DNA of 64,000 nt. It comes from a virus. The stretch is taken from IMG/VR virus record IMGVR_UViG_3300031519_004866, one strand, 5' to 3'. The stretch's first letter is position 1. Every line of letters begins with the position of its first letter. The translations under genes were made by a program, and so were the position numbers. Below, one piece after another: positions 14,045-63,024 of the stretch. The notes beneath the pieces were generated by a model, which was not told the origin of the DNA, made no database searches, and saw only the letters and a program-made list of their open reading frames with translations.

Positions 14045-14050
14045 TAAATA
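14045..14050 (+). promoter_or_regulatory. Late-type promoter, leaderless (TAAATA-N5-ATG)
   Basis: TAAATA ataac ATG(14056), no SD. Confidence 0.65.
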
Positions 14051-31635: not shown

Positions 31636-32298
31636 ATGCTAGAAAAAACAACATACACAGTCCCCTTGGAAATGCTTAGTTTGGTTGATGTTAACGAGCT
31701 TAACGGCAAAACTTCAATTAACAAGCCAACTGGAAATTTCTTTTACGATCCGTGGATTATATCTGCTGATTATAGAGACACTGTATGGCATAAAATTTTA
31801 CAAACACTAGATTGCTCTAATATTGGTGAAGCACGAGTTATAGTTTTAAATTCTCCAAGCTGCTATACCAAACATGCAGACATTGACGATCGCTGGCATT
31901 TAAATATATTTGGCGATCAAGGATATCTAATTGATCTTGACACTGAAATAATGCACAAAACAGAACAAGATGGCATTTGGTACAAAATGGATGCTGGTGT
32001 TATGCATACTGCTATAAGTGTTGGCGAGCATAAAAGAGTCCAACTAATTGTAAGAGAACTTTTAGAACGTAACAAATTAGTTGACCCAGTAAAAGTATGG
32101 ATATCATTAGTAGGTAACAATCCAAGATACGTGTTTGATAACACACTAAGTCCTTGGCTTAACAAAATACATAAACAAAAACTAATGTCAAATTTTGAAG
32201 CAGGCAGCACTATGGTTAAATTTGATATTGAAAAAGAATTACTTGCAGAACTTAACAAAGTGAAGCCAGTGCAATTTACAATAGGAATATATGAATGA
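31636..32298 (+). CDS. 2OG-Fe(II)/Asp-Asn beta-hydroxylase-like oxygenase
   Basis: HADID..H...HTA...R facial triad pattern; start revised from 31555. Confidence 0.75.
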   Translation: MLEKTTYTVPLEMLSLVDVNELNGKTSINKPTGNFFYDPWIISADYRDTVWHKILQTLDCSNIGEARVIVLNSPSCYTKHADIDDRWHLNIFGDQGYLIDLDTEIMHKTEQDGIWYKMDAGVMHTAISVGEHKRVQLIVRELLERNKLVDPVKVWISLVGNNPRYVFDNTLSPWLNKIHKQKLMSNFEAGSTMVKFDIEKELLAELNKVKPVQFTIGIYE

Positions 32299-33209
32299 AA
32301 ATACTAATGACAGGAAGTTCCGGTTTTATCGGACAACACTTAACTGCTAGATTAAAAGATCACAACGTACATCACATGGTAAGTGACCTTCGAGATCATA
32401 AAGCAGTCACTGACGAAGTAATAGCTGTTAAGCCTGACATCATTGTACATCTAGCAGCACGTACAGAAGTTGAACAAAGTTTTTATGAACAGATTACTTT
32501 CAGTGAGATTAATTACGTTGGTACTGTTAATTTAATTGAAGCAGCAGCAAAAGTTAAAAATTTAAAAAACTTTGTATTTGCTAGTACTATGGAAGTTTAT
32601 GGGTGGCAACCTATTAGTGACGAAGTTGAAAAACATACTATACCAGATAACTTTGTAGCCTTTGATGAAAATACACAACCTAATCCAAATGCTCCATATG
32701 CAGTTGCTAAGTACGGATGTGAAAAATATTTAGAATACGCACATCGTTGTTTGGATCTTCCGTTTACTGCATTTAGACAAACTAACTGCTATGGTAGAAA
32801 AGACAACGACTATTTTGTAACGGAACAAATTATTAGCCAGATGCTAGTTAGTGATGAATGTAACTTAGGGTACGCAGAGCCATATCGTAATTTTATACAT
32901 GTAACTGATATGCTAGATGCATGGCAAACTGTAATAGAAAACCCGGACAAATGCAATGACGGAATGATATTTACAATTGGTCCTGACAACCCTATCAAGA
33001 TCAAAGACTACGCAGAACTAATTGCAAAGAAGATTGGGTTTACAGGTAAGATTAACTGGAACACAAAACTTTTCCGTGCAGGAGAAATTTATTGGTTAAA
33101 CAGTAACAACACCTTAATTACTGAACGATTAGGATGGGAACCTAAAGTTAGCCTAGACGAAGGTCTAGATAAAACAATTGACTATTGGAGAAGTAAACTT
33201 GAAGGATAA
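32295..33209 (+). CDS. NAD-dependent nucleotide-sugar epimerase/dehydratase
   Basis: TGSSGFIG, HLAA, STMEVYG, YAVAK (YxxxK), R.F.HV.D. Confidence 0.92.
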   Translation: MKILMTGSSGFIGQHLTARLKDHNVHHMVSDLRDHKAVTDEVIAVKPDIIVHLAARTEVEQSFYEQITFSEINYVGTVNLIEAAAKVKNLKNFVFASTMEVYGWQPISDEVEKHTIPDNFVAFDENTQPNPNAPYAVAKYGCEKYLEYAHRCLDLPFTAFRQTNCYGRKDNDYFVTEQIISQMLVSDECNLGYAEPYRNFIHVTDMLDAWQTVIENPDKCNDGMIFTIGPDNPIKIKDYAELIAKKIGFTGKINWNTKLFRAGEIYWLNSNNTLITERLGWEPKVSLDEGLDKTIDYWRSKLEG

Positions 33210-39697: not shown

Positions 39698-40198
39698 ATG
39701 GATTGGGTAGGTAACTTTAATAACACACTAGCTCCTGAAATAAATGATCTTGTAATGATCTCAACTGGTCAAGCTCGACCTGGTGATTGGGAACCTATTA
39801 ATGCTGTTGAAGAAGATCTTTGGAAACAAGGCCAAGAAACATTTAACTTTGATAAAGTAATGTGGTATGTATATGAACAGCAAGACTTACAAATTGATCT
39901 AAAGTTTCCTTGGACAACTGGAAACTGTCATTGGTGGATCACTAAACTACTACCTGGGCAAATGATGCCTATGCATACAGATCCACACACTCACGATGAT
40001 GGCACATGCAAACGATATTGGGTACCTTTACAAGATTATATTCCTGGGCATGTTTTTATATACAATGATGTAATGGTATCAGATTACAAAAGAGGTGATG
40101 TGTTTCAATACTCACATTCGCAAGACGAACACGGTGCAGCAAATCTTTCTTTTGTACCAAGGATAGTGCTACAAGTTACTGAGTACACCAATCATTAA
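39698..40198 (+). CDS. 2OG-Fe(II) oxygenase-like protein
   Basis: PGQMMPMHTD ... HGAAN....R. Confidence 0.78.
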   Translation: MDWVGNFNNTLAPEINDLVMISTGQARPGDWEPINAVEEDLWKQGQETFNFDKVMWYVYEQQDLQIDLKFPWTTGNCHWWITKLLPGQMMPMHTDPHTHDDGTCKRYWVPLQDYIPGHVFIYNDVMVSDYKRGDVFQYSHSQDEHGAANLSFVPRIVLQVTEYTNH

Positions 40199-41414
40199 TA
40201 TGCCAAGTAGGGCATTTAAATTCATCAATATTATATACAAGAATATCTTTTGCAGTCCCATATAAGTTATAAGGTGTAAACGCTTCTGAAGTTCTTGAGC
40301 TAAAGTTTATTTGTGCGTCTGGCATTTCTTGCTTTAAATAATTGATTAAATGGTTCTCTTTTTGCAGTTTATACTTAATGTTGTATAGTGTATTAGTGCC
40401 TTCATAGCAAAAAATGTTGCTTATGTTGTACAATGTATACTTTATGTAACGTTTTTCCAGGTAATCACATATATTAACATGCTCTCCTAGTAAATCCCAT
40501 TTAACAAATTTGTATGTTACGTTAGGCAAACGTTCAACATTTTCTTTCCAGTAAGCTAAACTGCTTTCATTGTAATCATAAAGTACAACAGTTACAGGCT
40601 TAGTTTTGTGTATCCATGATTTATACATTTCACCACTTGCTGGAGCAACTACTTGTCTTAGATTTTCGTAAATCCTATTATGATGTTCAGTGTGATCTGT
40701 ATGTATATGCTCGGTCCTGCAAAAATTATCTTTGTAATATACATACTCCAACTGCTTGTAAAAGTCAGTAGGACTTTCAGGATAAAGATGTTTTTTATTG
40801 TTTCTAATATCTTCAGGAAATGCTTTAACATGAAACCCTTTTTTTAATGCAACACTAATAATATTCCATCCGTGACATTTATGATTGTATTTGGTGTTTC
40901 CAGACGGCGTATCTAGTTTAATCCAATGAGGAGTATAGCTGTCATGAAAGTTATTAGTTGAACGTTGTACTGCTAGTTGTGTGTGCTGCTCACCAAGTTG
41001 CTGTTGTCCAATTTTTGGACACCCTAGGTCTTTATAGTTTGTTAGGTTAACCAAAAAACACTGTTGGTGCAGTTCGTAATATGCATCGCCTCTATCCAAA
41101 ATATGCCCTTTAACTAGATAGTCAGGTTGGCATTCTTTGAGCAGCGCATCTATTGCTGTTGTGCCATTAGTAAATTCAGTACCCGTAGACAGCATACAAG
41201 CGTGTTTAAAGCGTTTCATTGCTTCCTGTAGTAGTAAGTCCCCACTTGTGCCTTGCAGCACTGTATAGCCCTTAGAGAAGAGGTTCTGTAGTGTAAAGTC
41301 AGCTTGGTTCTTAGTAAGCTCTTTGATCCACGGATCAGTTATTTTGGTAGTTGTATCCAAAATACAAAATACTAGTTCGTTGTCGCCATTAGGATTATAT
41401 TCAACTATGTTCAT
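40176..41414 (-). CDS. Hypothetical protein (412 aa)
   Basis: Long coupled ORF; GHILDR...YELH.QCF motif; no family recognised. Confidence 0.8.
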   Translation of the reverse strand: MNIVEYNPNGDNELVFCILDTTTKITDPWIKELTKNQADFTLQNLFSKGYTVLQGTSGDLLLQEAMKRFKHACMLSTGTEFTNGTTAIDALLKECQPDYLVKGHILDRGDAYYELHQQCFLVNLTNYKDLGCPKIGQQQLGEQHTQLAVQRSTNNFHDSYTPHWIKLDTPSGNTKYNHKCHGWNIISVALKKGFHVKAFPEDIRNNKKHLYPESPTDFYKQLEYVYYKDNFCRTEHIHTDHTEHHNRIYENLRQVVAPASGEMYKSWIHKTKPVTVVLYDYNESSLAYWKENVERLPNVTYKFVKWDLLGEHVNICDYLEKRYIKYTLYNISNIFCYEGTNTLYNIKYKLQKENHLINYLKQEMPDAQINFSSRTSEAFTPYNLYGTAKDILVYNIDEFKCPTWHINDWCTQ

Positions 41415-42132
41415 GCTGTTTTCGATAACTCCTTGCTACAAGCTCTGCAAAATCTTTTTTACTCTTTCCTGGAATGCCATGCGATATTAAATGTATCCTT
41501 GATTGATTAGATGGATTAATAACACTATGATAATTTCTAATGTTTATAATAAATGCTTTGCCTTCTTCAAAGGGAACACAGCCATATCCTTCGAGAGTCA
41601 TTACACAATCCTTAGGGTGTATAATTGCTATGTTAATAGGAACCCCAAACTCTAATATATCTAAGTTATCTTCTCCAGGTAATTTACCAGGTGCGTCACT
41701 ATGTGGGCTAATATAACCTTTTGGCTCTATCTGCATAAGTCGTATTCTTCGATAAGTTTCATATGGAAACTGTTGCCAAAAACTTTTTATACTTGGGGTG
41801 GATTCACTTAGCGTAGTCCATTTGTAAGGAACATCTTCTTCACGCTCATACCCATAATTTGTCCATGCACCTGTCTTGTCAACATCGATGCCATGAATGC
41901 AGGCACTATTCCAGCCTGGGTGATCATTTCCTCTATGGTTATAGAATCTAGCATGTTGCACATCTAACTTCCATGAGTCTATAGGAATATCAATGTCTAA
42001 TTCTAGCCAACCAAAGGCGGCCTCGTTTAACAACCAATGTGCTAGTTCTACATCATTGCTGCAATTGGCAGGTGCCGCAGGCATTTTCCATGTACAATTT
42101 TTATTCTTTTCGTAGAAATTTACAGCATTCAT
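41401..42132 (-). CDS. Asp/Asn beta-hydroxylase-like 2OG-Fe(II) oxygenase
   Basis: R.RLM..EP.GYI.PHSD ... HSV.N.S...RIH. Confidence 0.82.
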   Translation of the reverse strand: MNAVNFYEKNKNCTWKMPAAPANCSNDVELAHWLLNEAAFGWLELDIDIPIDSWKLDVQHARFYNHRGNDHPGWNSACIHGIDVDKTGAWTNYGYEREEDVPYKWTTLSESTPSIKSFWQQFPYETYRRIRLMQIEPKGYISPHSDAPGKLPGEDNLDILEFGVPINIAIIHPKDCVMTLEGYGCVPFEEGKAFIINIRNYHSVINPSNQSRIHLISHGIPGKSKKDFAELVARSYRKQHEHS

Positions 42133-42137
42133 ATAGT

Positions 42138-42166
42138 TACTTATGTGCGTAGTTAACTTATAAATA
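42138..42166. promoter_or_regulatory. Back-to-back leaderless late-type promoters
   Basis: Minus TAAGTA(42138-43) actat ATG(42132); plus exact T4 late box TATAAATA(42159-66) gtaat ATG(42172). Confidence 0.75.
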
Positions 42167-42171
42167 GTAAT

Positions 42172-43140
42172 ATGGATAATAGATTAAGCCTGCCTGATAA
42201 TGAATTCGGCCAAGCAGCAGTATGCATTATCATAAACAATACTTGTAATCTTACATGTAATGAATGTGGTACATTGCAAAATTATAACTTTGCAGGAGTA
42301 ATGTCTTGGAAGGAAGAAAAGCATCTTTATGAAGAATGGGCTAAGAAAGCAAACTTCCCAGATATTGACATACTAGGAGGAGAGCCATATCTTAATCCTG
42401 AACTACTAGATTGGGCGTTAGGTATTAAAACCCTATGGCCAGAGAGCCGAGTGAGTGTTGTAACTAACGGAACACTATTAGGATTGAAAAAGAATGTCGA
42501 AGCAACTCGTACATTTTTAGAAGCAGGTGTGTGTTTAAATTTATCAGGCCATGCTCAAAAAGATGTTCCTAAATTTAAAATGTTCATTGATAAAATTCTA
42601 GAACCATTCGGCGACAGAGCTCAAAGGATAAATCCAGATTATGATGATCCACACGGAATTGAACATCTAGATATGTGGCAGATTGATGGACAGTATGCTA
42701 TTGGACACACTCTTGTAGATAAGATGTTTCCTAATTATATAAAAGAAGTAAAAGATAACACAATAATTTTAGATGATGGCGATAGAGAAAAGAGCCACGA
42801 TGCGTGTATATACGGACAACACTGTCATACGCTACAACGAGGCAAACTATTTAAATGTCCTCTAGTGTTAAACTATGACGAATTAAAAACACAAACATAC
42901 TACGAAGAAAGAGCATATCCATTATTAGAAGATTATAAAGCGTTAACAGTGGATCAAGACAAAGAAACAATGCAAGACTTTTTTAACAATATAGGAAAGT
43001 CAATTCCAGCATGTTCTTTGTGTGCTATGCATAAAAAACCAGATCCAAAAAAACTTTCAGTTGATGTAAAATTTGATAAAAACAGAAAGAAAGCATTCAA
43101 AGGAGTAGATCTTGTCAAAGTTAAAAATCTCACATCTTGA
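42172..43140 (+). CDS. Radical SAM protein 8
   Basis: CNLTCNEC, ILGGEP, TNG, C...C..L..G.LFKC, C.LC. Confidence 0.9.
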   Translation: MDNRLSLPDNEFGQAAVCIIINNTCNLTCNECGTLQNYNFAGVMSWKEEKHLYEEWAKKANFPDIDILGGEPYLNPELLDWALGIKTLWPESRVSVVTNGTLLGLKKNVEATRTFLEAGVCLNLSGHAQKDVPKFKMFIDKILEPFGDRAQRINPDYDDPHGIEHLDMWQIDGQYAIGHTLVDKMFPNYIKEVKDNTIILDDGDREKSHDACIYGQHCHTLQRGKLFKCPLVLNYDELKTQTYYEERAYPLLEDYKALTVDQDKETMQDFFNNIGKSIPACSLCAMHKKPDPKKLSVDVKFDKNRKKAFKGVDLVKVKNLTS

Positions 43141-43948
43141 GTGGCACGTAGCTCACTCATGTAATCTTACATGTGTAGGGTGTGGGCATTTTAGTAATCA
43201 TAGACATACAGGTATAGTAAAATATGACGAATTAGAATCTTGGTACAAGAGTTGGGCTCATAGACTTGATCCGAAAACAATTGACATACTAGGAGGAGAG
43301 CCTCTACTAAACAAAGACATTTATAACATTCTTTTCTTAACAAGAAAGTATTGGCCAGACTGTGAAAATTTAAATTTACAAACTAATGGCTTTTTGCTTT
43401 ACAAGTATCCTGACTTACCTAAAGTGCTAGAAGAAACTAATATATCTATTAGCCTTAGTAAGCACAGTACTAAAGAAGCATATATGAAAAAGTTTACGCC
43501 TGCAGAAGAATTACTATTACAATGGAAAAAAGATTATAATATTAAAGCAGAAGTTTCCCCATGCCATACATATTGGTTTGAAATATATAAAGGGTATGGA
43601 AACAACATGATGCCCTATGAAGATAATGATGCACAGAAAAGTTGGGATAATTGTATTACCGGACAAGATTGTTTCCAACTACTAGATAACGAAATATACA
43701 AATGTTCGCCACTAGCATATCTTCCGTTTCAAAAGAAATTATACAACTTATCTCCTAAGTGGGATCCCTATTTAAAGTATAAGCCAATAACAGCAGATTG
43801 CACAGATCAAGATCTAGCAGAGTTTTTTGCTAGAGGATGTGAAAGTTTTTGCTCAATGTGTCCTACTAATCCAAAGCGTATGGATCAACAAGGTGATCCA
43901 ACAACACCAAGATCACACTACGAAAACATAAAAATTCAACAGGTATAA
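43112..43948 (+). CDS. Radical SAM protein 9
   Basis: CNLTCVGC, ILGGEPLL, TNG, C...C.QL....YKC, C.MCP; tandem paralog of protein 8. Confidence 0.9.
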   Translation: MSKLKISHLEWHVAHSCNLTCVGCGHFSNHRHTGIVKYDELESWYKSWAHRLDPKTIDILGGEPLLNKDIYNILFLTRKYWPDCENLNLQTNGFLLYKYPDLPKVLEETNISISLSKHSTKEAYMKKFTPAEELLLQWKKDYNIKAEVSPCHTYWFEIYKGYGNNMMPYEDNDAQKSWDNCITGQDCFQLLDNEIYKCSPLAYLPFQKKLYNLSPKWDPYLKYKPITADCTDQDLAEFFARGCESFCSMCPTNPKRMDQQGDPTTPRSHYENIKIQQV

Positions 43949-43949
43949 T

Positions 43950-44885
43950 ATGCAAAAGTTTCCATACGATAAAAAACATTTACCATTTGGACATTCAGGA
44001 GCAGTCCTCGATCAAGAAGTAATGAACTTTTTGAACATGATACCTCTTAGATTCACAGAACACATGTATGATGTAAATGTAACTGAAGAATATTTAGAAA
44101 GATATCATGCTTGGATTAGAATGTCAGCTCTAAATTTAATAGCAGGGCTAGATGATTTTCCTTACAAATGTTACTCTCATGGTACTACTGAATCATTTGA
44201 TAAGTTTTACATGAAGCACAAAGATAGAAGATTTAGATGCTTTAGAGGTGAATATCTATATCATCAGTTAGCATGGCGTGATAAATTTAATTGGTTGTAT
44301 GCCGATGATGATTGCTTAGATGCTAATGACGCACTAGTTATTAGTTTACCTTTTAGTAATACAGGAAACAAACACAAGTTACACGAAGCAGCATTAAATG
44401 AATGCGATAGACTAGGTATACCTGTTTTACTTGACTGTTGTTACTTTGGTATATCGTCTGCTATAGAATTTAATTTTAAGCATGAATGTATAACTGATAT
44501 TGTTTTTAGTTTATCAAAAACATTTCCAGTAGCACATGCAAGAATAGGTATGCGTTTAAGCAAATACGATGACGATGATACTTTGTTTGTTTATAACAAA
44601 AACAGTTACGTGAATAGACTAGGTGCTTATATAGGTTTACAGTTAATGGAAAATTACAGTCCTGACTTTATCTACAAAAAGTATAAATCACAACAATTAG
44701 AATTTTGTAAACATCTGGATGTTGAGCCTAGCAGTACTGTGTTGTTTGGTATTGCGCCTCAAGATAAGTATGTTGAATACAATAGAGGCAGCGGCAGTCC
44801 TGATGCTGAACTAAACAGGCTTAGTTTTCATAAATTTTTATCTATGTCAGTTGAGGAGTTTGCACAGTGCATAAAGCAAGAGTAG
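43950..44885 (+). CDS. PLP-dependent fold-type I enzyme (aminotransferase-like)
   Basis: SLPFS, LDCCY, FSLSKTF.....RIG (PLP lysine). Confidence 0.78.
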   Translation: MQKFPYDKKHLPFGHSGAVLDQEVMNFLNMIPLRFTEHMYDVNVTEEYLERYHAWIRMSALNLIAGLDDFPYKCYSHGTTESFDKFYMKHKDRRFRCFRGEYLYHQLAWRDKFNWLYADDDCLDANDALVISLPFSNTGNKHKLHEAALNECDRLGIPVLLDCCYFGISSAIEFNFKHECITDIVFSLSKTFPVAHARIGMRLSKYDDDDTLFVYNKNSYVNRLGAYIGLQLMENYSPDFIYKKYKSQQLEFCKHLDVEPSSTVLFGIAPQDKYVEYNRGSGSPDAELNRLSFHKFLSMSVEEFAQCIKQE

Positions 44886-46054
44886 TTAATATTGAATGGA
44901 CTGCTGATAATAACAGATGGAATCTTGATAAAACGGTATTCAGCGAATTAAAACTAAAGTGGATATTCAAAGAATTTAAACAAGCAGCCAAAGACGGATG
45001 TAATACTGTTATTGCAGTAATGATGATCGATGGTGTTCTAAACCCAGAGCCAGATATTTGGCCAGGTGAAGTTGCTAGAATGAAAGAACGTTGTACAAAA
45101 CTAGGAATAGAAAAACTAGTGTTTGTTTCGGGTCATGGCGGTTACGAATATATAGTACCTTTAGCATTTGATAAAATATATGCTATTGATTACACACTCC
45201 AATTTACTTATAAGTCTTACGAAGATAGAATTACCAAAAACAAACTAACTGAATATAATCCACATGCAGATAAATTTCTATTTCTTGGCGGCGTGCCATC
45301 GAGGATGAATCGTATAGGATTGCTTTACAAGTATTATAAACTTGGAATGTTAGACTACAATGCTATTTGGACATTCTTTGTTCCATGGACAGAAAGTGAA
45401 CGCAAAGTGTGCAAGGATTTAATGCACATGTTAACAGACGAAGATCTAACCAAGTTTTACAATTTTGCCAAAAGAAGAATAGGCGATGAGTACGAACATG
45501 CTAAACAGTTTTTTGCAGATAACACAAGTGACTGGCATGATGTTGGAGAAACTGATTGGGCTAGAGCACCTGCACTGATTAACAGTAGTATATTTCCAGA
45601 AACGTGTTTAAGCATTATTAGTGAAGGTCCTAACTATTGGGATCACAATGCAAACAATTCTTTTGTAACAGAAAAGTTTTGGAGAGCAGCATTTCACAAA
45701 CATCCGTTCTTGTTTGCGGGCGACTTAGATCAATTTAAATATATGGAAACTCTTGGGTTCCGAACCTTTGCAGAATATATGACTATACCAGAGTATGCAT
45801 ACCTTGAAACAGAGGAGCAACGTCTTGATGCAATTGTAACCAATACAGCAGACTTTTTAAAACTTCAGAAGCCACAAAAATTAATTGATGATATAGAACA
45901 CAACTATCAATTAGCAAAGCGTTATGTTGATAAGCAACATTTACTTCTTGATCATCTAGTTGATCATTATGGGGCACCAAGAAATGAAGTAAATTATTAT
46001 CTTAATCAAACAGGATATACTAATCTAGTACAGAGGCCGCCATCGTATGAGTAA
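44867..46054 (+). CDS. Putative glycosyltransferase (GT-B, GT10-like C-terminus)
   Basis: FLFLGG...R, SIISEG, FVTEK.W, PF...G....L..LGF.TF. Confidence 0.5.
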   Translation: MHKARVVNIEWTADNNRWNLDKTVFSELKLKWIFKEFKQAAKDGCNTVIAVMMIDGVLNPEPDIWPGEVARMKERCTKLGIEKLVFVSGHGGYEYIVPLAFDKIYAIDYTLQFTYKSYEDRITKNKLTEYNPHADKFLFLGGVPSRMNRIGLLYKYYKLGMLDYNAIWTFFVPWTESERKVCKDLMHMLTDEDLTKFYNFAKRRIGDEYEHAKQFFADNTSDWHDVGETDWARAPALINSSIFPETCLSIISEGPNYWDHNANNSFVTEKFWRAAFHKHPFLFAGDLDQFKYMETLGFRTFAEYMTIPEYAYLETEEQRLDAIVTNTADFLKLQKPQKLIDDIEHNYQLAKRYVDKQHLLLDHLVDHYGAPRNEVNYYLNQTGYTNLVQRPPSYE

Positions 46055-46961
46055 ATGTGCAGCATTTTATAAGCATACTAATGTGCGTAGCGGAAATAGA
46101 ATATTTCCTTGTTGTCGCTATAAAGAACCTATAGCTGTGTTCGACGGTAATTTAAACAGGGTACTTGACTTACCAGAGATGCAAAAGTTAAGAGAAACAC
46201 CTGTTGAAGATAACCCTAATTGTGCAAAATGTGTACACGAAGAGTCGTTAGGAAAAAACAGTTTGCGTGAACGCTTTAATGCTGAGTATAACACACAAGA
46301 AGTAAAATTAGAATATTTAGAAATAGGGTTTGATAATATTTGTAATGCAGCCTGTGATGGGTGTTATCCAGAGTTTAGCAGCGAGTGGGGTAAGATACTA
46401 GACCCAAACAAAAAGAATCATATTGTAAGCAGTGACGAAATAACTTCTATTCCAGATACTGTAACAAAGATATTATTCTTAGGAGGCGAACCATTAATGA
46501 CTAACAGACACAGACGCCTATTAGAAATGGTAACCGACCTAAGTAACATGACAGTAATATACAACACCAATGGTACATTTATGTTAGACAAAGAAACTAT
46601 AATACAACTTGAAAAATGTAAAAGTGTTGAATTTATTCTAAGTCTTGATGGCTATGGTGAGCTAAATGAGCGTGTAAGAAAAAACTGTAAATGGAGTAAG
46701 ATAGAACGCTTTATTGATCAAGTAAAGATATGTGGTTATAAATTAAGTGTAAACACTGTACTCCACAAAAATAACTATCACGGACTTGTTGATTTAGAAA
46801 ACTATATTAACAGTTTAAAAGATGTTGAATGGTCAGTAAACATACTTACATTCCCTCAAACATTAGATGTTAATACGGTTGAAAATAAACAAGCAGTAAT
46901 AGATAGTATAGTGAAAACAAATATAGCAAACAAGGAAGCACTTATTAAACATGTTACATGA
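46047..46961 (+). CDS. Radical SAM protein 10 (N-terminal Twitch-like domain)
   Basis: C....PCC...C.KC then CNAACDGC, FLGGEP, YNTNG, SLDG. Confidence 0.9.
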   Translation: MSKCAAFYKHTNVRSGNRIFPCCRYKEPIAVFDGNLNRVLDLPEMQKLRETPVEDNPNCAKCVHEESLGKNSLRERFNAEYNTQEVKLEYLEIGFDNICNAACDGCYPEFSSEWGKILDPNKKNHIVSSDEITSIPDTVTKILFLGGEPLMTNRHRRLLEMVTDLSNMTVIYNTNGTFMLDKETIIQLEKCKSVEFILSLDGYGELNERVRKNCKWSKIERFIDQVKICGYKLSVNTVLHKNNYHGLVDLENYINSLKDVEWSVNILTFPQTLDVNTVENKQAVIDSIVKTNIANKEALIKHVT

Positions 46962-47502
46962 TATTAGATTATACGCTGACTATGACAAGTTTTTACAAGT
47001 AGTAGAAGCAGCAAAGACTGCTATACCAAATAAGTTTTGTATTGTAGAACATCTAGTTAATGTAACAGAATATGATGACAGCCCTGACTTGACAGATATA
47101 CACCCAAAAGATAGAAATAACGTAGACTTCCGTGTCTGTATATTTTATCCAGACAAAGATAATACAATACCAAGACTAAAACCTGTGTGCGATATACTTG
47201 AAAATATGCAAGGAGTTGAACGTGCTGCAATTATCAACATAGGTCCTAAGTCTATTATGCCAAAGCACATTGATGATATGGAAAGACCTTTATACGAAGA
47301 AACTCCATTCTATAATGTGTTTACAGGTTTTCAAATTCCACAAGGAGATTTAGGTGTTAAAGTTGGAGAAGATTTAGCAGACGTTAGCAACCCGATAGTT
47401 TTTAATGCACAAATACCACACGAAGCATGGAATCAAACTTCGCAAGACTGGTTATCTTTACTGATATATATTAATAACGATACATTTAAAAAGGAACAAT
47501 AA
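46951..47502 (+). CDS. Asp/Asn beta-hydroxylase-like oxygenase
   Basis: P.S.MPKHID ... F....PHEAWN. Confidence 0.72.
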   Translation: MLHDIRLYADYDKFLQVVEAAKTAIPNKFCIVEHLVNVTEYDDSPDLTDIHPKDRNNVDFRVCIFYPDKDNTIPRLKPVCDILENMQGVERAAIINIGPKSIMPKHIDDMERPLYEETPFYNVFTGFQIPQGDLGVKVGEDLADVSNPIVFNAQIPHEAWNQTSQDWLSLLIYINNDTFKKEQ

Positions 47503-48554
47503 TGAAAGTATCTACTCACAACCATTGGGATCCCTTAGAAGAGATAGTAGTTGGAATAGCTGACCATGCTAGAGTACCAACTGTAGATCGTAGCACTATG
47601 AGCATGAGCTACACTAATCATCCTATGGATTTGATTAAACCTTTAGAGGGTGAATATCCTAAATGGCTTATTGATGAAGCAAATGAAGATCTACAAGGGT
47701 TAAGTGATGTACTATCTAAAGCAGGTATAAAAGTACACAGACCTATTCCAATTGATCACAGCAAAGAATTTAGTACTCCTGAATGGAAAACTACAGGATG
47801 GTATACATGGTGTCCTAGAGATTTACTATTGCCTATGGATAACTTAGTTATTGAAACTCCTAGTGCTTGTCGTGCAAGACAGTACGAAACTAGAGCATAC
47901 AGAGATATTATGTTAGAAGCAATTGCCGACGGTGTTGAATGGATTGCTGCGCCTAAACCAACCCTACCGGATGAAGGCTATCAGTTTGATGACATTGAGG
48001 GTAAACCCAGTTTGTTAAATCTAGAGCCTATCTTTGATGCACCTAACTGTGTACGTCTGGGCAAAGACATATTGTTTCAAATTAGCAACACAGGAAACCA
48101 TTGGGGATTAAAATGGTTGCAAAATGTACTAGAGCACAGAGGGTATCGTATACACCCTGCAGAACACATTTATAGTTACGGACACTTTGACAGCACAATA
48201 GTACCTCTACGTCCTGGATTAGTATTATTAAACAGTTCAAGAGTAACCGCAGAAAACTGTCCTAAAGTATTTGAGAAATGGGATAAAATTTGGTTTGATG
48301 ATTGTGTTGCCCAAGGCAGCAAAATTCCAGGAGGAGTTGCACCATGCAGTCCTTACATTGGTATGAACATTTTAAGTATTGATCATAATACAGTTGTTGT
48401 AGACGATACGCAAGAACCTCTAATGCGTGAGTTAGACAAGCACGGTATTACTAGTGTACCTGTACGCTTTAGACATGCTATGACTTTAAGTGGTGGGTTG
48501 CATTGTGCAACACTTGATTTAAAACGTAAAGGCGTATTGGAGGATTATACATAA
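47502..48554 (+). CDS. L-arginine amidinotransferase (StrB1/GAT family)
   Basis: HN.WDPLEE, CPRD, FDA, HFDST..PLRPG, GG.HC.T catalytic Cys/His/Asp. Confidence 0.92.
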   Translation: MKVSTHNHWDPLEEIVVGIADHARVPTVDRSTMSMSYTNHPMDLIKPLEGEYPKWLIDEANEDLQGLSDVLSKAGIKVHRPIPIDHSKEFSTPEWKTTGWYTWCPRDLLLPMDNLVIETPSACRARQYETRAYRDIMLEAIADGVEWIAAPKPTLPDEGYQFDDIEGKPSLLNLEPIFDAPNCVRLGKDILFQISNTGNHWGLKWLQNVLEHRGYRIHPAEHIYSYGHFDSTIVPLRPGLVLLNSSRVTAENCPKVFEKWDKIWFDDCVAQGSKIPGGVAPCSPYIGMNILSIDHNTVVVDDTQEPLMRELDKHGITSVPVRFRHAMTLSGGLHCATLDLKRKGVLEDYT

Positions 48555-49048
48555 TGTTAAAGTATTGGGGCAATGTAACTGACTTCTGGAAAGAAGATTT
48601 ACAGAATTACACATGGCCTGAGTCTGTAAGTACAGGACAGAACGAAAATTTTCATGATGCTTACTTTGATGAATCTAATAATTTAATGCAAGGGTTTGAT
48701 GGGCAATTGCCAACCTGCTGTGATAGATTCTTTAAAGAACTATACATTGAAAAAAAAGAAATTAGCAGCATAAGTTGGACACAAATTAAACCGTCAGGGA
48801 CTATTCCTGTACATGCAGATAAATTTTTTAAACTTAGAACAAAACATAATTTAGATATTGATGATTGTGTAAGATATCTTATATTTTTAGAAGATTGGAC
48901 GTTAGGTCATATGGTTGAGTTTGAGCAACAACCAGTTACTAAATGGAAAAAAGGTGATGTATGGACATTTACACACGACGATTTACACTGTGCTGGAAAT
49001 GCCAGTAACCATAACTTTAACACATGCCAAGTAAACACGAGGAAATAA
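48554..49048 (+). CDS. 2OG-Fe(II) oxygenase-like protein
   Basis: P.GTIPVHAD, R.LIFL.DW..GH, HCAGN. Confidence 0.78.
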   Translation: MLKYWGNVTDFWKEDLQNYTWPESVSTGQNENFHDAYFDESNNLMQGFDGQLPTCCDRFFKELYIEKKEISSISWTQIKPSGTIPVHADKFFKLRTKHNLDIDDCVRYLIFLEDWTLGHMVEFEQQPVTKWKKGDVWTFTHDDLHCAGNASNHNFNTCQVNTRK

Positions 49049-50175
49049 TGGAACTAACTTCTCTACAAAAAGAATGGAATAACTGTACACTTGAGTACGA
49101 TCTAGAAAGATTTAATTGGCCTGCATGGGCTTTAAGTGTTGTACAAGAAGTAGCGCCAACTGTTACTAAATTAGAAACACTACACGAAGTGCTATCTCCT
49201 AAAGAGATTGTAACAGTTAGTAAGCATGTACAGAATGCGTGTAGCCGTAAAGACTTTATGGAACGCTTTGATGCGTTTGTTGCTGAATACATTCCGCAGC
49301 GTATTGACGGTAAACGATTTATGATACAGCGCCAAGGAACATTGCGTGTTGTTATTCCAAATCAAGCAAAAGTAGGCAGACGTTTGCAGTTTCATCAGGG
49401 CATTTTTGTAGGCAACGGTAGAGGTTGTAGAACTATATGGACACCGTTCACTGAAGCTCGTGGCACTAATACAATGTGGATGGTTGACCTAGAAAACAGC
49501 CGCCGTATTACTAAAGACTTTGTTACAGAAAAATGGAGTCTCGAACGTATGGAAGATGAATGTTTAAAGGTTGCGTTTCCTGTTACTCTTAAACCAGGAC
49601 AAAGTCATTTATTTTTCCAAGAAATGTTACACGGCAATGTCAACAACGAAGAAGGATATACTCGTGTTAGCATGGATATGCGTATCTTAATTGAAGGTGA
49701 AGAATACGGACGCAGACATCCAGGAGGCTTTATGCGATTGCCTGGCGATCATGAAGTAGCAGAACTAGGAGACTATTCCGGCAAGAGTGCAATTACATAT
49801 GCAGGATGGGCTAGTGATTTTTCTAGGAATGTTACACTACCTATGCAAAGAGCAATTATTGATCAGTACTGCGAAAGAACAAATATACAATACACTAGTT
49901 ATGAATTTGAGAATGATCATTGTGATTGGCAGCCAAGTTTAGAATATTTTATTAAACAACAACCTGATGTGATTGTTCTTAACAGTATGTACAGCCTTAC
50001 TGATGATGCAGAGCGCAGAACAGAATTATTAAATTTAGCATTAAGATTAGGTGTAGAGTTGCATTTTGCAAACGAATTGACAGTTCTTAAAACACAAGAT
50101 GATTTAGATAAAATTGAAACCTATCTCAATTTTGCAGTAGAAAAATTAGAACCTTATGTTTGGGAATTAGTGTAA
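49048..50175 (+). CDS. StrG-like 2OG-Fe(II) oxygenase fused to a resolvase-like / 'sporadic carbohydrate cluster' domain
   Basis: FHQG...IWTP...HGN..N....TRVSMD.R N-domain; C-domain Q...I..YC...Y...E...S.Y.L......G.ELHFA.E; start revised to 49048 (TAATG). Confidence 0.6.
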   Translation: MELTSLQKEWNNCTLEYDLERFNWPAWALSVVQEVAPTVTKLETLHEVLSPKEIVTVSKHVQNACSRKDFMERFDAFVAEYIPQRIDGKRFMIQRQGTLRVVIPNQAKVGRRLQFHQGIFVGNGRGCRTIWTPFTEARGTNTMWMVDLENSRRITKDFVTEKWSLERMEDECLKVAFPVTLKPGQSHLFFQEMLHGNVNNEEGYTRVSMDMRILIEGEEYGRRHPGGFMRLPGDHEVAELGDYSGKSAITYAGWASDFSRNVTLPMQRAIIDQYCERTNIQYTSYEFENDHCDWQPSLEYFIKQQPDVIVLNSMYSLTDDAERRTELLNLALRLGVELHFANELTVLKTQDDLDKIETYLNFAVEKLEPYVWELV

Positions 50176-51645
50176 GTTAACCCAAGTGCTACCAGCATAC
50201 GCCTGTATCTTACTATCAGTAGTATTATAAATCATTTGACCGTTTACTGCTGTAAGAGCATTACGTTCTGTAGTGGACAAAGATTTAAGCTGTGCTGGTC
50301 CACCAAATACTGTTTCTTGTTTTGAGTTAAATGTAACTGCTGTTTGTAGGGCACCTGCTGCATCTGCTGTTTGTACTTTATATCTACCTGGAACTTGGTT
50401 AGCTGCAATAGCACCATCTGCTTCAGCGTCGACAACCACTGCTACACCAATTGATGATTCAGCTCCTGTGCCGTAGCCCATATAAGCAATTCTAAAGATA
50501 CCGTCGCCATTTTGAATAGCTGCTGGACTTGCTTTTGTACCACGTGTTTTAACAACCTGTTGTGCCGGTGCATCTGCGCCAGTGTTGTAGGCTTTGAATG
50601 TGAATAGATCGTAATTATCTTCACCGTCACCTTCTGTTTCAAGGAATAAACCGCCAGCTGCAAGATCACTGTTAATAATAATATTAGAAGTAGTTACACT
50701 GTCGTTAACAACATTACCTTGTACTGTACCGCTTGTTGAATCAATAATAGCAGAGCTATCATCACCAAAAACACTACCTCTTAAATCACCGTAGATATTA
50801 GCTGCAACAATTTTTCTGTCAATGGCATCAACCATAACTGAACTATCATCACCATACAAACTACCTCTGAAATCACCAACAACTTGGTTTGCAGTTACCG
50901 TATTAAAGATACCACTGTTAGTAGATGTATTAATAATAAGACTTGAATCGTCACCAATAATATTTGCATTAACGTTTGCACCTGGCTCAGCAACACCACC
51001 TAGTGTTAAACCGCCTACAGTTGATCCTGCAGGTAATTCAATTGCTCCGCCATTGTTTGCCATCTTTGCGCCACCAATCCATACACCGTCACCGGCATAT
51101 ACATTGGCAAATGTTGTTCCTGGTGCACCAACGTTACGTGTATTAGTAGCATCTGGAATTACGTTATCTTTAATAGTGCCGTTTAAGTTAATTGCACTGT
51201 CTACTGCATTAATAAGAATAGAAGAATCGTCACCAAATACTGAACCTGTATAGTCTGCTACAATTTTACCTGTAACAGTTAAGTTGCCACCAATTGTGCT
51301 GTTTCCAGCAATATCCAATCCACCACTGCCAGTAATGTTATATGAATTTAAATCTAAATTTTGTAGTAATTGAGGTGGGCTAACTGTTGCGCTGATAGTG
51401 TTTGCGCCATCGTTGTAAGCAAATGTAATTCCTGTATTGGGGCCTGCTACTAGCATGTTCCCAACTGCATCTTGTGCATCTTCTGCATTAAAACCTGTTA
51501 CTGGCTCTAGCGCATTTAATAATGTTGTACCGTCTCCGACGTACAATTTGGCCTGATCTGTAATCCAAATAAGCTCTCCTGCCTGTGGTGCAGTGGCTAG
51601 CGTTTGGCGTTCAGCGTCGGTCCCTCTTCGAATTTGTAGTGGCAT
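50167..51645 (-). CDS. Tail fibre-like protein with Mtd-type N-terminus and GSVFGDDS repeats
   Basis: MPLQIRRGT...GEL....D...LYVGDG; four G..GDDSS repeats; C-terminus paralogous to 5367..7319; TAAATA at 51687-51692. Confidence 0.78.
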   Translation of the reverse strand: MPLQIRRGTDAERQTLATAPQAGELIWITDQAKLYVGDGTTLLNALEPVTGFNAEDAQDAVGNMLVAGPNTGITFAYNDGANTISATVSPPQLLQNLDLNSYNITGSGGLDIAGNSTIGGNLTVTGKIVADYTGSVFGDDSSILINAVDSAINLNGTIKDNVIPDATNTRNVGAPGTTFANVYAGDGVWIGGAKMANNGGAIELPAGSTVGGLTLGGVAEPGANVNANIIGDDSSLIINTSTNSGIFNTVTANQVVGDFRGSLYGDDSSVMVDAIDRKIVAANIYGDLRGSVFGDDSSAIIDSTSGTVQGNVVNDSVTTSNIIINSDLAAGGLFLETEGDGEDNYDLFTFKAYNTGADAPAQQVVKTRGTKASPAAIQNGDGIFRIAYMGYGTGAESSIGVAVVVDAEADGAIAANQVPGRYKVQTADAAGALQTAVTFNSKQETVFGGPAQLKSLSTTERNALTAVNGQMIYNTTDSKIQAYAGSTWVNLH

Positions 51646-56278: not shown

Positions 56279-56958
56279 GTCTTGTTATTTAACTCCCATG
56301 CTGTTACATCAGCAGGAGAATTGATTTCTATTCCGTTAAAGTCCACACAACTGCAACCTATATCCCAGCCTGCTTTAAGCCAACGTAACTGTTCTAGTTT
56401 TTCAACCTGTTCTTCTTGTGTAACTTCCATGCCTTTATAGAATAATAACGGATTGCGTTTGTATCCGTAAATACCTAAATGCCAATGTCCGTATCCAGTT
56501 AGTCCTCTACCAAACCACAGAGCTTTGTCACCAGCACGTACCATCTTAACTGAGTTAGGATCGTCTTGCATTGCTTTAGGCATTTCTGCGTATACTGTGC
56601 TTATTTGATAATACTTGAGCCATTCTACACAACGTTCAATCATTTGTAGTGTTACATCAGGCATATCGCCTTGTACATTAATAAATTGATCGTACTCATT
56701 AAAGAAGTCGTTTTGTACTGCGCCTGCAACACGTTCTGTGCCGTTGTCGTAATCTTTTTCATCAATCCAGCAGTTATCCGGGCCAAACAAATTAAAGATA
56801 CGCATGTCATCTGTTAGTACATATGTTGGTATCTTAGACGCAACACAAGCGTCATACACACGTTTAATCATAGGAACTCCATCTAACATAGCAAGAGGCT
56901 TTCCAGGGAAACGTGTGCTACCGTAACGTGCAGGTATTAGAATAGCAGTGTTAGGCAT
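56269..56958 (-). CDS. kdsB: CMP-KDO synthetase
   Basis: IPARYGSTRFPGKPLA, NGTER, INVQGD.P, VK.V, H.GIYGY, E...EKLEQLR.L, I.S.ADV; start 56958 (SD AGGTGA). Confidence 0.93.
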   Translation of the reverse strand: MPNTAILIPARYGSTRFPGKPLAMLDGVPMIKRVYDACVASKIPTYVLTDDMRIFNLFGPDNCWIDEKDYDNGTERVAGAVQNDFFNEYDQFINVQGDMPDVTLQMIERCVEWLKYYQISTVYAEMPKAMQDDPNSVKMVRAGDKALWFGRGLTGYGHWHLGIYGYKRNPLLFYKGMEVTQEEQVEKLEQLRWLKAGWDIGCSCVDFNGIEINSPADVTAWELNNKTPA

Positions 56959-60972: not shown

Positions 60973-63024
60973 TTACTTGGTCGTTGCAATGAAAACTCCA
61001 TTCCAATCTTCAGGTAAGTCTTGTGTCTTTTGGAATTCACAACGTTCTATCCACATTGTATAATAGCCTTCTAATTGACCACTAAAGTGTCTTTTTAGTT
61101 TTTCACAAATCCAAATTGCTTCATCAAACTTTTGAGCTCTATATGCTTCATACATACGCTGGTGCATGTTTTGGCTTTTATATTCAGCTTTTGTGCCTTT
61201 AACGTCTAGCACTGTCCATATCCCAATGCCTACAGTTTTTCCTTTAACTGCTAGGTCGTCTATCTTTAAGTAGAAGAAGTCGTCTTTAGTAGTTTGGTAT
61301 GTCGCATCTCCAACAAGTAATACACATCCGTACTCTTTACATTTGCTTTCAATACGAGCGGCTGTACTAACTGCATCTCCGAGGACATCATAACTGTGTC
61401 GGGCTGTTGAACCCATCTCGCCAAGATAGCCAAGACCAGTATTAATGCCAGCCCCCATACCCACTGGGGGTCTTCCTTCTTTGGTAATCTTATCATTAAA
61501 TATCTCCACTGCTTTTAACATATCCAATCCACATTGTACCGCCGTTCTAGGATGATGTGGATCTTCAATTGGTGCATTGTGTATGTGCATACTTGCGTCA
61601 CCAATATACTTAATAACCATACCGTCTGCATCTAGTATGGGCTGTGTAATAGCGTCCATGTAGCCATTCATAATTTTAGTTAGGCCTTTTACATCATCAC
61701 CAAATGATTCACCTAGTGGAGTAAAGCCTCTTAGGTCTGAGAAACAAATTGAAACTTCTTTCTTCATACCGTCTTTGATTAGTTCAGGATTTTCTTGTAG
61801 TAGTCTTACTACTGTTGGTGATGCATATCCAGCGAACTGTTTCTTAATTGCTTGTTTTTGGAAATACTCGTTTACAAATCGGTTAAACACTGCATGAAAG
61901 CCAACAAATGTACTTACTAGTAGTACCCAACTAACGTCCCATAGCTGTAACTGCCCTTTAAACAGCGTGTAAGCACCGTACAAGCACGTTGCATATATCA
62001 CAAGTAGCAATGCTCCAACTACATAATACGGTGCAAAAACAGCAGCAATTATAAGAATAACACCAATTGCAATAGATGCAATGTACTCTACAAATGTAGC
62101 ATAATCAAAACGTACAATGTTATCTCCACTAATAATAGTTTGGAGAGCTGTTGCTCCTGCAACATGACTATACATTTCTCCTTTTGGAGTACCAATCACA
62201 CCTCCTAGTCCTTCTGCTGTTATACCAATAATAACAGTTTTTCCTGCTAGACTAGAGTAGTCTTCATTTGCAGCACTAAGTGTGCTAAACTCTTTATTCC
62301 AACGCAACCAAATTCTAGCATTTGGGTCTGTTTTAATAGTTGCATACGCAGGAACTCGTAACGCAATAATTCCGCCTGGTCCTGTTTTAACTTGATAACT
62401 AGGATCTCCAACAGCAACTCTAATAGTTTCTAATGCAATTGCAGGATATACTTCTTCTCCTACTCTCATCAACAATGGCATACGTCTTACAACACCATCG
62501 ATCTCTGGAGCAGTATTAATAACACCAACACCAGCAGCAACATCGCCTAACTCAGGTATAGGTCCAAGCATGCCTGGCCACTCAAATAACCAAGGAAACG
62601 GATCTCCTATTTTAGCAACACCTCTTGGCACTGCATTTTTGTTTGTTTGAGTTGTTCCTACTTGTGCAATAACAACACCGTTGTCTTTAAGTGCAAAAAC
62701 TAAATCGTTGTCGCCTTGCAATCTATCTGACTCAGAAAACAGTATTGGCATTACAATAATACCAGCGCCTGCTTCTCGCAATTTGTAAATAATATCTGCT
62801 AGTACATCACGCTTCCAAGGCCACTGTCCGTATTGCTGTATAGACGCTTCGTCTATTTCTAGTATTGCAACATCTTGAGATTGTTCTGGAGTGTCGTACT
62901 GTTGTATAAGATCAAATGACTTCAGTCGCATTGTTTCTTTAACAAAAGGATCATTAAATCCTAAAATGCTAATAACAGCCAATGTAATTACTGCTGTGAA
63001 CCAATGTGTAATATATTTGCCCAT
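60973..63024 (-). CDS. CHASE2-domain class III adenylate/guanylate cyclase
   Basis: IDE.SI..YGQWPW.R, D.DGVVRR, three TM helices, FSDLRGFT, KYIGDA, G.GINTG, YDVLGD.V..AAR.ES. Confidence 0.92.
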   Translation of the reverse strand: MGKYITHWFTAVITLAVISILGFNDPFVKETMRLKSFDLIQQYDTPEQSQDVAILEIDEASIQQYGQWPWKRDVLADIIYKLREAGAGIIVMPILFSESDRLQGDNDLVFALKDNGVVIAQVGTTQTNKNAVPRGVAKIGDPFPWLFEWPGMLGPIPELGDVAAGVGVINTAPEIDGVVRRMPLLMRVGEEVYPAIALETIRVAVGDPSYQVKTGPGGIIALRVPAYATIKTDPNARIWLRWNKEFSTLSAANEDYSSLAGKTVIIGITAEGLGGVIGTPKGEMYSHVAGATALQTIISGDNIVRFDYATFVEYIASIAIGVILIIAAVFAPYYVVGALLLVIYATCLYGAYTLFKGQLQLWDVSWVLLVSTFVGFHAVFNRFVNEYFQKQAIKKQFAGYASPTVVRLLQENPELIKDGMKKEVSICFSDLRGFTPLGESFGDDVKGLTKIMNGYMDAITQPILDADGMVIKYIGDASMHIHNAPIEDPHHPRTAVQCGLDMLKAVEIFNDKITKEGRPPVGMGAGINTGLGYLGEMGSTARHSYDVLGDAVSTAARIESKCKEYGCVLLVGDATYQTTKDDFFYLKIDDLAVKGKTVGIGIWTVLDVKGTKAEYKSQNMHQRMYEAYRAQKFDEAIWICEKLKRHFSGQLEGYYTMWIERCEFQKTQDLPEDWNGVFIATTK

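Follow-up and report, generated by a model that had tools for sequence, protein, structure and literature searches.

Gene clusters that combine radical S-adenosylmethionine (SAM) enzymes with an amidinotransferase have been seen since 2010 in the Campylobacter phages CP220 and CPt10, where clusters of five radical SAM genes and a putative glycine amidinotransferase were reported (Timms et al. 2010, PMC2853527). These T4-related myophages encode 11-12 radical SAM enzymes and one amidinotransferase, and the genes are packed with sugar-transferase-like genes and adjoin baseplate or tail genes. In the cyanophage S-SCSM2R, described in 2025, an 'inosamine amidinotransferase', a pyridoxal phosphate (PLP) enzyme and a radical SAM gene were listed as 'antibiotic synthesis genes', a reading given without data (PMC12801897). 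Pelagimyophages carry a 'host recognition cluster' made of tail fibres, glycosyltransferases and radical SAM cassettes (Zaragoza-Solas et al. 2020, PMC7029224). Here we analysed a 64,000-nucleotide stretch of viral DNA, IMG/VR record IMGVR_UViG_3300031519_004866, which we call the window. At 42172-50175 on the plus strand it holds a nine-gene operon with a StrB1-type amidinotransferase and a StrG-like oxygenase. On balance we favour the reading that this operon is a late glycan-tailoring module of a host-recognition island, making a guanidino-bearing, further oxidised sugar for a glycoconjugate, and we regard this as somewhat probable.

The operon lies at the end of a variable island (about 23.5-50.2 kb of the window) which is flanked by tail-fibre-like genes and contains 10 radical SAM genes and many 2-oxoglutarate (2OG)-type oxygenases. 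It matches the host recognition cluster of pelagimyophages and cyanomyophages, which is likewise a large variable island between structural genes; that study contains no amidinotransferase cassette and proposed host O-chain modification from GT8 genes (PMC7029224). With 10 radical SAM genes the window resembles CP220 and CPt10, but only the amidinotransferase is recognisably homologous to its CP220 counterpart (30% identity), and counterparts of the PLP enzyme, the glycosyltransferase-like protein and the StrG-like protein are undetectable there. The S-SCSM2R module ORF305-310 shares a radical SAM enzyme (ORF306, 42% identical to the product of 43112-43948 and likewise near the amidinotransferase gene), a small 2OG protein (26%), the amidinotransferase (36%), a PLP enzyme and glycosyltransferases. 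It differs in that its PLP enzyme is a short AHBA-synthase/DegT-type protein and the StrG-like fusion is missing. The first-pass annotation of the window had called a guanidino product 'not described for phages'. The gene combination had in fact been noticed, in the Campylobacter phages (PMC2853527) and in S-SCSM2R (PMC12801897), and what stands is that no product has ever been identified. What is new here is the GDP-sugar context of a bacterial homologue, a direct test against StrG, a family-wide count of the HxD and HxG motifs, a unique late-promoter box and the occurrence of the locus in 16 studies.

The first-pass annotation had placed a single plus-strand cassette at 43950-50175 and named four components in it. 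Seven overlapping plus-strand open reading frames (ORFs) lie in this interval and all four components are intact, so the cassette stands in this respect. The unit is wider, however. It starts at 42172, not at 43950, with two radical SAM genes coming first, and consists of nine translationally coupled genes, of which five had been omitted (three radical SAM genes and two small genes of the cupin/2OG type). The operon and its promoter box are as follows.

42159..42166, plus strand: T4-type late-promoter box TATAAATA, 5 nt before the first ATG of the operon
42172..43140, plus strand: radical SAM enzyme, 322 amino acids, first operon gene (PF04055, 33.9 bits; CxxxCxxC)
43112..43948, plus strand: radical SAM enzyme, 278 amino acids (PF04055, 38.7 bits)
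43950..44885, plus strand: fold-type-I PLP enzyme, class I/II aminotransferase-like (HisC/AspAT/CobD type), 311 amino acids
44867..46054, plus strand: GT-B fold glycosyltransferase-like protein, 395 amino acids, with an SEG...TEKFW motif
46047..46961, plus strand: N-terminal-twitch radical SAM enzyme, 304 amino acids (NF033640, 164.8 bits, cutoff 170; PF04055)
46951..47502, plus strand: small Asp/Asn-hydroxylase-like cupin, 183 amino acids (PF05118, 21.2 bits, just below the cutoff of 22.6)
47502..48554, plus strand: StrB1-type L-arginine amidinotransferase, 350 amino acids
48554..49048, plus strand: small double-stranded-beta-helix protein (DSBH, 2OG/Fe type), 164 amino acids, with invariant H87-x-D89...H145
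49024..50175, plus strand: StrG-like PhyH-type 2OG oxygenase domain (H124-Q-G126...H203) fused to a LIC12192/TIGR04323-like domain, 383 amino acids

The assignments of enzyme class and catalytic residues, like those of operon structure and conservation, are shown by homology or by structure. The amidinotransferase matches StrB1 of S. griseus (PDB 1bwd) with 323.6 bits and an E value of 1.4e-95, residues 3-349 aligning with residues 4-346 of the chain without large gaps. The two proteins are about 45% identical over their full length, have the same compact size and share the Asp/His/Cys set. Across 19 relatives D107, H228, D230 and C335 never vary, and at least 90% of the rows have D179; the catalytic and guanidino-binding residues align with the StrB1 stretches FDAAN, HVDST and GGFHCATLD. 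The full catalytic triad and the StrB1 type claimed by the first-pass annotation are thus confirmed at the level of sequence, and the product is a genuine StrB1-type amidinotransferase. Its PHROG, phrog_25854, has no annotated function, and otherwise only the radical SAM genes of the operon have PHROGs.

We also considered that this might be an auxiliary metabolic gene of the guanidinoacetate/creatine type which encodes an ordinary arginine:glycine amidinotransferase and is unrelated to its neighbours. Automatic annotations do name relatives 'glycine amidinotransferase', and an ocean survey of auxiliary metabolic genes discusses viral creatine-pathway genes. However, HsvA, SxtG and the glycine amidinotransferases reach only 194-212 bits (the glycine enzymes themselves 194-202) against 324 bits for StrB1, the length is the compact one of StrB1, and the gene is translationally coupled inside a conserved nine-gene operon. 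The StrB1-like radiation of a maximum-likelihood tree, which includes a Nocardia strB1-strG locus, contains the phage enzymes as a clade with an SH-aLRT support of 99. We therefore find this explanation, which the first-pass annotation had named as part of what would overturn its reading, highly improbable. The tree also sets the phage enzymes apart from StrB1 itself, since they form a clade of their own which contains a few bacterial sequences. Transfer of an arginine-derived amidino group to an amine is the best reading of this gene, and amidination as such is well supported by the sequence comparisons.

As in actinomycete loci, a StrG homologue is encoded near the StrB1-type enzyme. The first-pass annotation had described a StrG-like oxygenase fused to a domain like the Leptospira 'sporadic carbohydrate cluster' protein, and the profiles bear this out. 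Residues 46-221 match TIGR04324 (77.1 bits, cutoff 150) and residues 271-369 match TIGR04323 (40.8 bits, cutoff 55). The two domains of the 'sporadic carbohydrate cluster' pair are in the right order, but both scores lie below the curated NCBI cutoffs, and the sequences are therefore relatives of the two families and not members. Fused forms have already been named in metagenome annotations, and the two-domain form is the common architecture of the family and not particular to this phage; one bacterial relative is itself fused to a glycosyltransferase. When the profile of the fusion family was aligned with StrG of S. bluensis in hhalign, the probability was 99.4% and the E value 4.6e-21. The fusion protein also matches a Nocardia orthologue in BLASTP (E 1e-9), and this Nocardia gene is 66-73% identical to proteins named StrG. 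These comparisons support the oxygenase domain as a true StrG homologue. Unlike StrG, a single-domain protein of about 199 amino acids with H-x-D...H, the phage protein has 383 amino acids, a second domain and HxG. In a literature search on the 'sporadic carbohydrate cluster' and on strG together with strB1 nothing was found.

The C-terminal domain was also considered as a remnant of a serine recombinase, another possibility raised by the first-pass annotation. For this the Atlas offers only a weak lead (score 0.77; 18% of one cluster carries Resolvase), no DNA-binding part is present, and the idea is unsupported.

The metal-binding site of the StrG-like domain is unusual. StrG has H-R-D and most relatives have H-x-D at the position where the fusion protein has H124-Q-G126 (codons 49393-49401, with the H203 codon at 49630-49632). 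The 11 phage homologues all keep H124, H203 and R214, and at least 90% of them also keep Q125 and G126. In the hydroxylase PtlH (2rdn, FHQD) the residue aligned with G126 is the Asp ligand. In the phage clade Gly has taken the place of the iron-binding Asp. Of 99 scorable family representatives, 24 have HxG and 75 HxD; the HxG forms are confined to one clade, in which Asp and Gly were swapped at least 4-6 times. Loss of the facial-triad carboxylate is a hallmark of Fe/2OG halogenases, and the fusion protein has this Fe(II)/2OG halogenase-type signature, with the carboxylate replaced by Gly and the 2OG-binding Arg retained. A profile search of the StrG-like domain against the PDB returned hydroxylases and dioxygenases only (PtlH, AndA, EasH). 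Since no link to a proven halogenase was found, we take HxG as a lead and not as a conclusion. That the domain might be an Fe(II)/2OG halogenase, and that the phage might build a halogenated, guanidino-bearing sugar, seems doubtful to us on the strength of this motif. If it were so, no other Fe/2OG halogenase encoded by a phage would precede it, and the StrG/sporadic-carbohydrate-cluster family would gain its first halogenase. It would also suggest that StrB1-type and StrG-type enzymes work on a common substrate, in streptomycin clusters as well as in marine phages.

The PLP enzyme gave zero matches in Pfam, NCBIfam and PHROG, including PF00155, for which a Bdellovibrionota homologue scores 15.8 bits, under the 19.7 cutoff. 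Its AlphaFold2 (AF2) model, built on 20 homologues, has a pLDDT of 92 and matches class I/II aminotransferases in Foldseek with a probability of 1.00 and E values of 2.8e-11 to 1e-9, among them HisC 2f8j (E 2.8e-11), the aspartate aminotransferase (AspAT) 2gb3, CobD 1lc7 and GntC 8ffu. D162 (DxxY), K190 (SLSK) and R198 are invariant in 20 sequences. K190 corresponds to the Schiff-base lysine, D162 to the aspartate at the pyridine nitrogen, and R198 lies eight residues past the lysine. The sequence profile matches 2gb3 at an E value of 0.03 over the Asp...SxSK...R stretch, where all three residues align. The model thus confirms the predicted fold-type-I PLP enzyme and places it in the HisC/AspAT/CobD class.

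Since the modelled PLP enzyme belongs to the amino-acid/phospho-amine class, a non-sugar amine has to be considered. A HisC/CobD/GntC-like enzyme could make or rearrange an amino-acid-type amine, possibly phosphorylated, which would then be amidinated and oxidised by the many hydroxylases and radical SAM enzymes, or these enzymes could modify a virion protein. Every structural neighbour of the PLP enzyme has an amino acid or a phospho-amine as its substrate, GntC of guanitoxin/enduracididine chemistry among them, and the Asp/Asn-hydroxylase-like and SPASM/twitch radical SAM families are often peptide-directed. In addition, purified S-SCSM2R virions contained a 2OG oxygenase and a second protein of the amidinotransferase-like kind (PMC12801897). 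However, no precursor peptide and no ATP-grasp or nonribosomal-peptide-synthetase-type gene is evident, and in the cassette the gene for the GT-B protein is no less conserved than the PLP gene. Glycosyltransferases or nucleoside diphosphate (NDP)-sugar enzymes accompany the amidinotransferase in all its independent contexts. We know of no pentein amidinotransferase that acts on proteins, which counts against the protein-directed version. We judge a non-sugar pathway of either kind to be unlikely.

The glycosyltransferase-like protein likewise has no sequence-family match, and a sequence-profile search of the PDB gave nothing useful. Its AF2 model (pLDDT 86) was compared with VIA-align, and the best 50 matches were all GT-B glycosyltransferases (Z 8.3-10.9, 226-287 residues aligned), which agrees with the first-pass assignment. 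E253, E269, K270 and R273 are invariant. The SEG...TEKFW motif recalls fucosyltransferases, whose structures are found at Z 8.3-8.9. An hhalign comparison with the GT10-annotated ORF240 of S-SCSM2R aligned the SEG...TEK stretch only and was not significant (E 0.07, probability 0.8%). StrF was tried as a counterpart and rejected, as hhalign found no relationship to the Glyco_tranf_2_5 gene of the Nocardia locus.

The alpha- and beta-glucosyltransferases of T4 are among the best structural matches of this protein (Z 10.9 and 9.9), and ThyX and a QueD/PTPS homologue are encoded in the window. This would suit a DNA hypermodification in which the GT-B protein and the amidinotransferase decorate a modified base, for example by glycosylating or amidinating an aminomethyl group. 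However, dozens of ordinary GT-B enzymes reach equal Z scores. The DNA-modification genes of T4 are early or middle genes, whereas this operon lies behind a late-type promoter in the midst of tail-fibre genes. Moreover, amidinotransferase homologues are present in both Campylobacter phage genera, whose DNA modifications differ (PMC6884629). We consider DNA hypermodification to be quite improbable.

The late-type promoter is the T4-type box TATAAATA listed above. It has a single perfect match in the whole 64 kb, where 9 would be expected by chance. The wider pattern TAAATA-N5-ATG occurs seven times against 2.4 expected, and none of 100 shuffles reached seven. The sites are at window positions 14045, 21164 (minus), 31579 (minus), 31625, 38851 (minus), 42161 and 56468, and the pattern heads a tail-fibre-like gene and each operon of the island, which suggests leaderless or near-leaderless late transcripts. 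In the related contigs L001, L002, L013-15 and L023 the TATAAATA box heads a radical SAM or PLP gene. The unique box, the excess of TAAATA-N5-ATG and the conservation of the box in relatives argue for late, possibly leaderless expression of the operon along with the virion genes.

A contig from an RNA library, belonging to a related phage, has a 20-nt insertion ACTGCGCATATAAATACTAG between the positions equivalent to 43948 and 43949. Through it the PLP gene gains a box of its own, a second TATAAATA, 5 nt ahead of its ATG, as in L001 and L002.

The amidinotransferase was found in 41 viral (IMG/VR) contigs at 54-97% identity, and about 30 of these loci have the PLP and GT-B genes beside it, the GT-B gene being as conserved as the PLP gene. 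Because of this recurrence the cassette is not a chance arrangement. The StrG-like fusion accompanies the amidinotransferase in 15 loci and occurs alone in many contigs, and is thus separable. More than 1300 metagenome proteins match the amidinotransferase at E <= 1e-20, and a near-identical stretch is present in marine and brine metagenomes of 16 studies. A megablast of 42000-50200 against 50,697 phage records gave zero matches, as did a tblastn of the fusion protein against phage records. The cultured relatives Melnitz and HTVC008M lack both the fusion protein and the amidinotransferase. The trio of small oxygenase, amidinotransferase and PLP-like enzyme is also found on Bdellovibrionota and Synechococcus lacustris contigs. 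Two short contigs, L079 from a Verrucomicrobiales and L080 from a Puniceispirillum metagenome-assembled genome, carry the cassette at 73-95% identity and in the phage gene order; they are probably phage contigs that were mis-binned.

StrB1-like and StrG-like genes are paired in three independent settings, namely this lineage, a second viral lineage (L028) and an actinomycete locus (L090). In L028, which adjoins a DNA polymerase gene, the order is GT2-like, StrG-like, unknown, amidinotransferase. In L090 it is DegT, amidinotransferase, GT2_5, StrG orthologue, aldo-keto reductase, DegT, an adjacency like that of strB1-strF-strG. The closest bacterial homologue of the amidinotransferase (L081, 62% identity) lies on a 240-kb contig with a GC content of 58-72%. 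It is part of a co-directional run of Gmd (533 bits, above the cutoff), an Fcl-like protein, a DegT sugar aminotransferase, a NodU-like carbamoyltransferase, the amidinotransferase, an FAD oxidoreductase and a second carbamoyltransferase; a methyltransferase and a radical SAM/SPASM gene lie just 3' on the opposite strand. In S-SCSM2R, ORF309 is surrounded by five glycosyltransferases, and the CP220 amidinotransferase adjoins two nucleotide-diphospho-sugar transferase-like genes. Every independent context of the amidinotransferase has glycosyltransferases or NDP-sugar enzymes.

These contexts bear on the choice between a guanidino/amidino sugar and a cyclitol, which the first-pass annotation had left side by side. 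StrB1, the best solved match, is an inosamine-phosphate enzyme, and a StrG homologue is close by, as in streptomycin-type clusters (L090). Together with the 'antibiotic synthesis' reading of the S-SCSM2R authors (PMC12801897), this would suit a streptidine-like aminocyclitol or another free small-molecule effector, diffusible or intracellular. However, the island ORFs scanned with Pfam and NCBIfam contain no inositol dehydrogenase, inositol-phosphate synthase, StsC/DegT aminotransferase, kinase or phosphatase, nor an exporter or resistance gene, and the aminotransferase of the phage is of class I/II, unlike the StsC/DegT enzymes of the streptomycin cluster. The phage clade branches apart from the actinomycete sequences and its nearest bacterial member is in a GDP-sugar operon, while a late promoter among tail-fibre genes fits a structural role better. 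We therefore rate the cyclitol or free effector as distinctly unlikely. The amidination in the first-pass proposal stands and a sugar fits it better; the cyclitol version lacks its other defining steps. An amino sugar is probably the acceptor rather than a streptidine-like cyclitol, judging from the gene content, because of the GT-B protein, the NDP-sugar-type short-chain dehydrogenase/reductase in the island (32295-33209), the Gmd-Fcl-DegT-carbamoyltransferase operon of L081 and the sugar genes beside the S-SCSM2R and CP220 homologues, and because no inositol enzyme, kinase or DegT enzyme was found among the scanned ORFs of the island.

In the pathway that we propose for the guanidino sugar, the class I/II PLP enzyme would install a primary amine in a keto intermediate. 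The likeliest such intermediate is a nucleotide-linked deoxy-hexose or another sugar acid. The amidinotransferase would then load the amidino group of L-arginine on Cys335, with ornithine leaving, and turn the amine into a guanidino group. The three radical SAM enzymes, the small cupin oxygenases and the StrG-like enzyme would tailor the unit by hydroxylation, epimerisation or C-methylation or, less likely, by halogenation. Finally, the GT-B enzyme would pass the unit to a virion protein, for example a tail fibre, or to the host envelope. The acceptor amine, the sequence of reactions and the final target are our inferences. The late-type promoter, the neighbourhood of tail-fibre genes and the lack of membrane steps in the window would all suit a product that decorates a virion protein or the host envelope.

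Several observations weigh against a guanidino-sugar module. The window yielded no nucleotidyltransferase, flippase or polymerase. By its model the PLP enzyme is of the amino-acid/phospho-amine class and not of the DegT class that usually aminates nucleotide sugars. The GT-B fold alone names neither donor nor acceptor, and its best structural matches include enzymes that glucosylate DNA in T4. The GDP-sugar context comes from L081, one bacterial locus. The proposed product, its acceptor and its target have so far been observed nowhere. In two studies, contigs from RNA libraries match much of the operon (90-99% identity), and one begins within 2 nt of the ATG at 42172, but such contigs cannot show transcription, transcript ends or timing and we do not count them as evidence of expression.

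The small oxygenases of the operon have relatives inside and outside the window. The product of 48554-49048 is homologous to S-SCSM2R ORF308, whose gene is directly 5' of the amidinotransferase gene, and its homologues also adjoin the amidinotransferase in L082-L084. Against PDB profiles the small DSBH proteins gave borderline 2OG oxygenase matches only. Most cassette-bearing loci also carry a divergent Asp/Asn-hydroxylase-like gene, a gene for a 412-amino-acid protein and one for a small DSBH protein. Here the genes upstream of the operon are the following.

39698..40198, plus strand: small DSBH paralogue, 166 amino acids, aligning with the product of 48554-49048 and sharing its H-x-D...H columns
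40176..41414, minus strand: 412-amino-acid protein of a virus-only family, co-occurring with the cassette
41401..42132, minus strand: divergent Asp/Asn-hydroxylase-like 2OG oxygenase, 243 amino acids (PF05118, 28.5 bits)

The gene at 41401-42132 adjoins the cassette in most related contigs (54-93% identity). For the 412-amino-acid protein there was no match in Pfam, PHROG or PDB and no detectable fold, and its Atlas neighbours are viral. An Atlas lead suggests that forms of this family are fused to an Asp/Asn-hydroxylase domain in other viruses.

Just 3' of the operon a tail-fibre-like protein is encoded on the opposite strand.

50167-51645, minus strand: tail-fibre-like protein with four GDDSS-x-(I/M)-(I/V)-(N/D) repeats

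This protein is a possible candidate for the modification target.

The window as a whole has a GC content of 34-39%, encodes T4-like phage functions and belongs to an uncultured marine phage of this type. We note three further genes in it.

18380-19162, minus strand: KdsA (CMP-Kdo pathway)
about 56287-56949, minus strand: KdsB homologue (CMP-Kdo pathway)
60973-63024, minus strand: adenylate/guanylate-cyclase-like protein, 683 amino acids, the best taxonomic anchor of the window

The cyclase-like protein is 69% identical to its counterpart in Methylophilales phage Melnitz and 48% identical to that in Pelagibacter phage HTVC008M. KdsA and KdsB add to the sugar context of the operon. In S-SCSM2R the second, distant amidinotransferase-like gene, ORF266, whose product is reported in the virion proteome, directly adjoins KdsA/KdsB (L136:21919-24247), which hints at a link between amidinotransferases and Kdo-type sugars.

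The proposal is directly testable, as the enzymes are soluble and small and a related module exists in the cultured cyanophage S-SCSM2R. If the operon is a guanidino-sugar module, abundant marine and freshwater T4-like phages would make a cationic guanidino sugar late in infection, from genes beside those of their tail fibres; we know of no report of such a modification in bacterial or viral glycans. This would add a chemical layer to phage-host recognition or superinfection exclusion, and it would explain the clusters of radical SAM and amidinotransferase genes of the Campylobacter phages. It would also provide a first way into the function of StrG and of the 'sporadic carbohydrate cluster' proteins.

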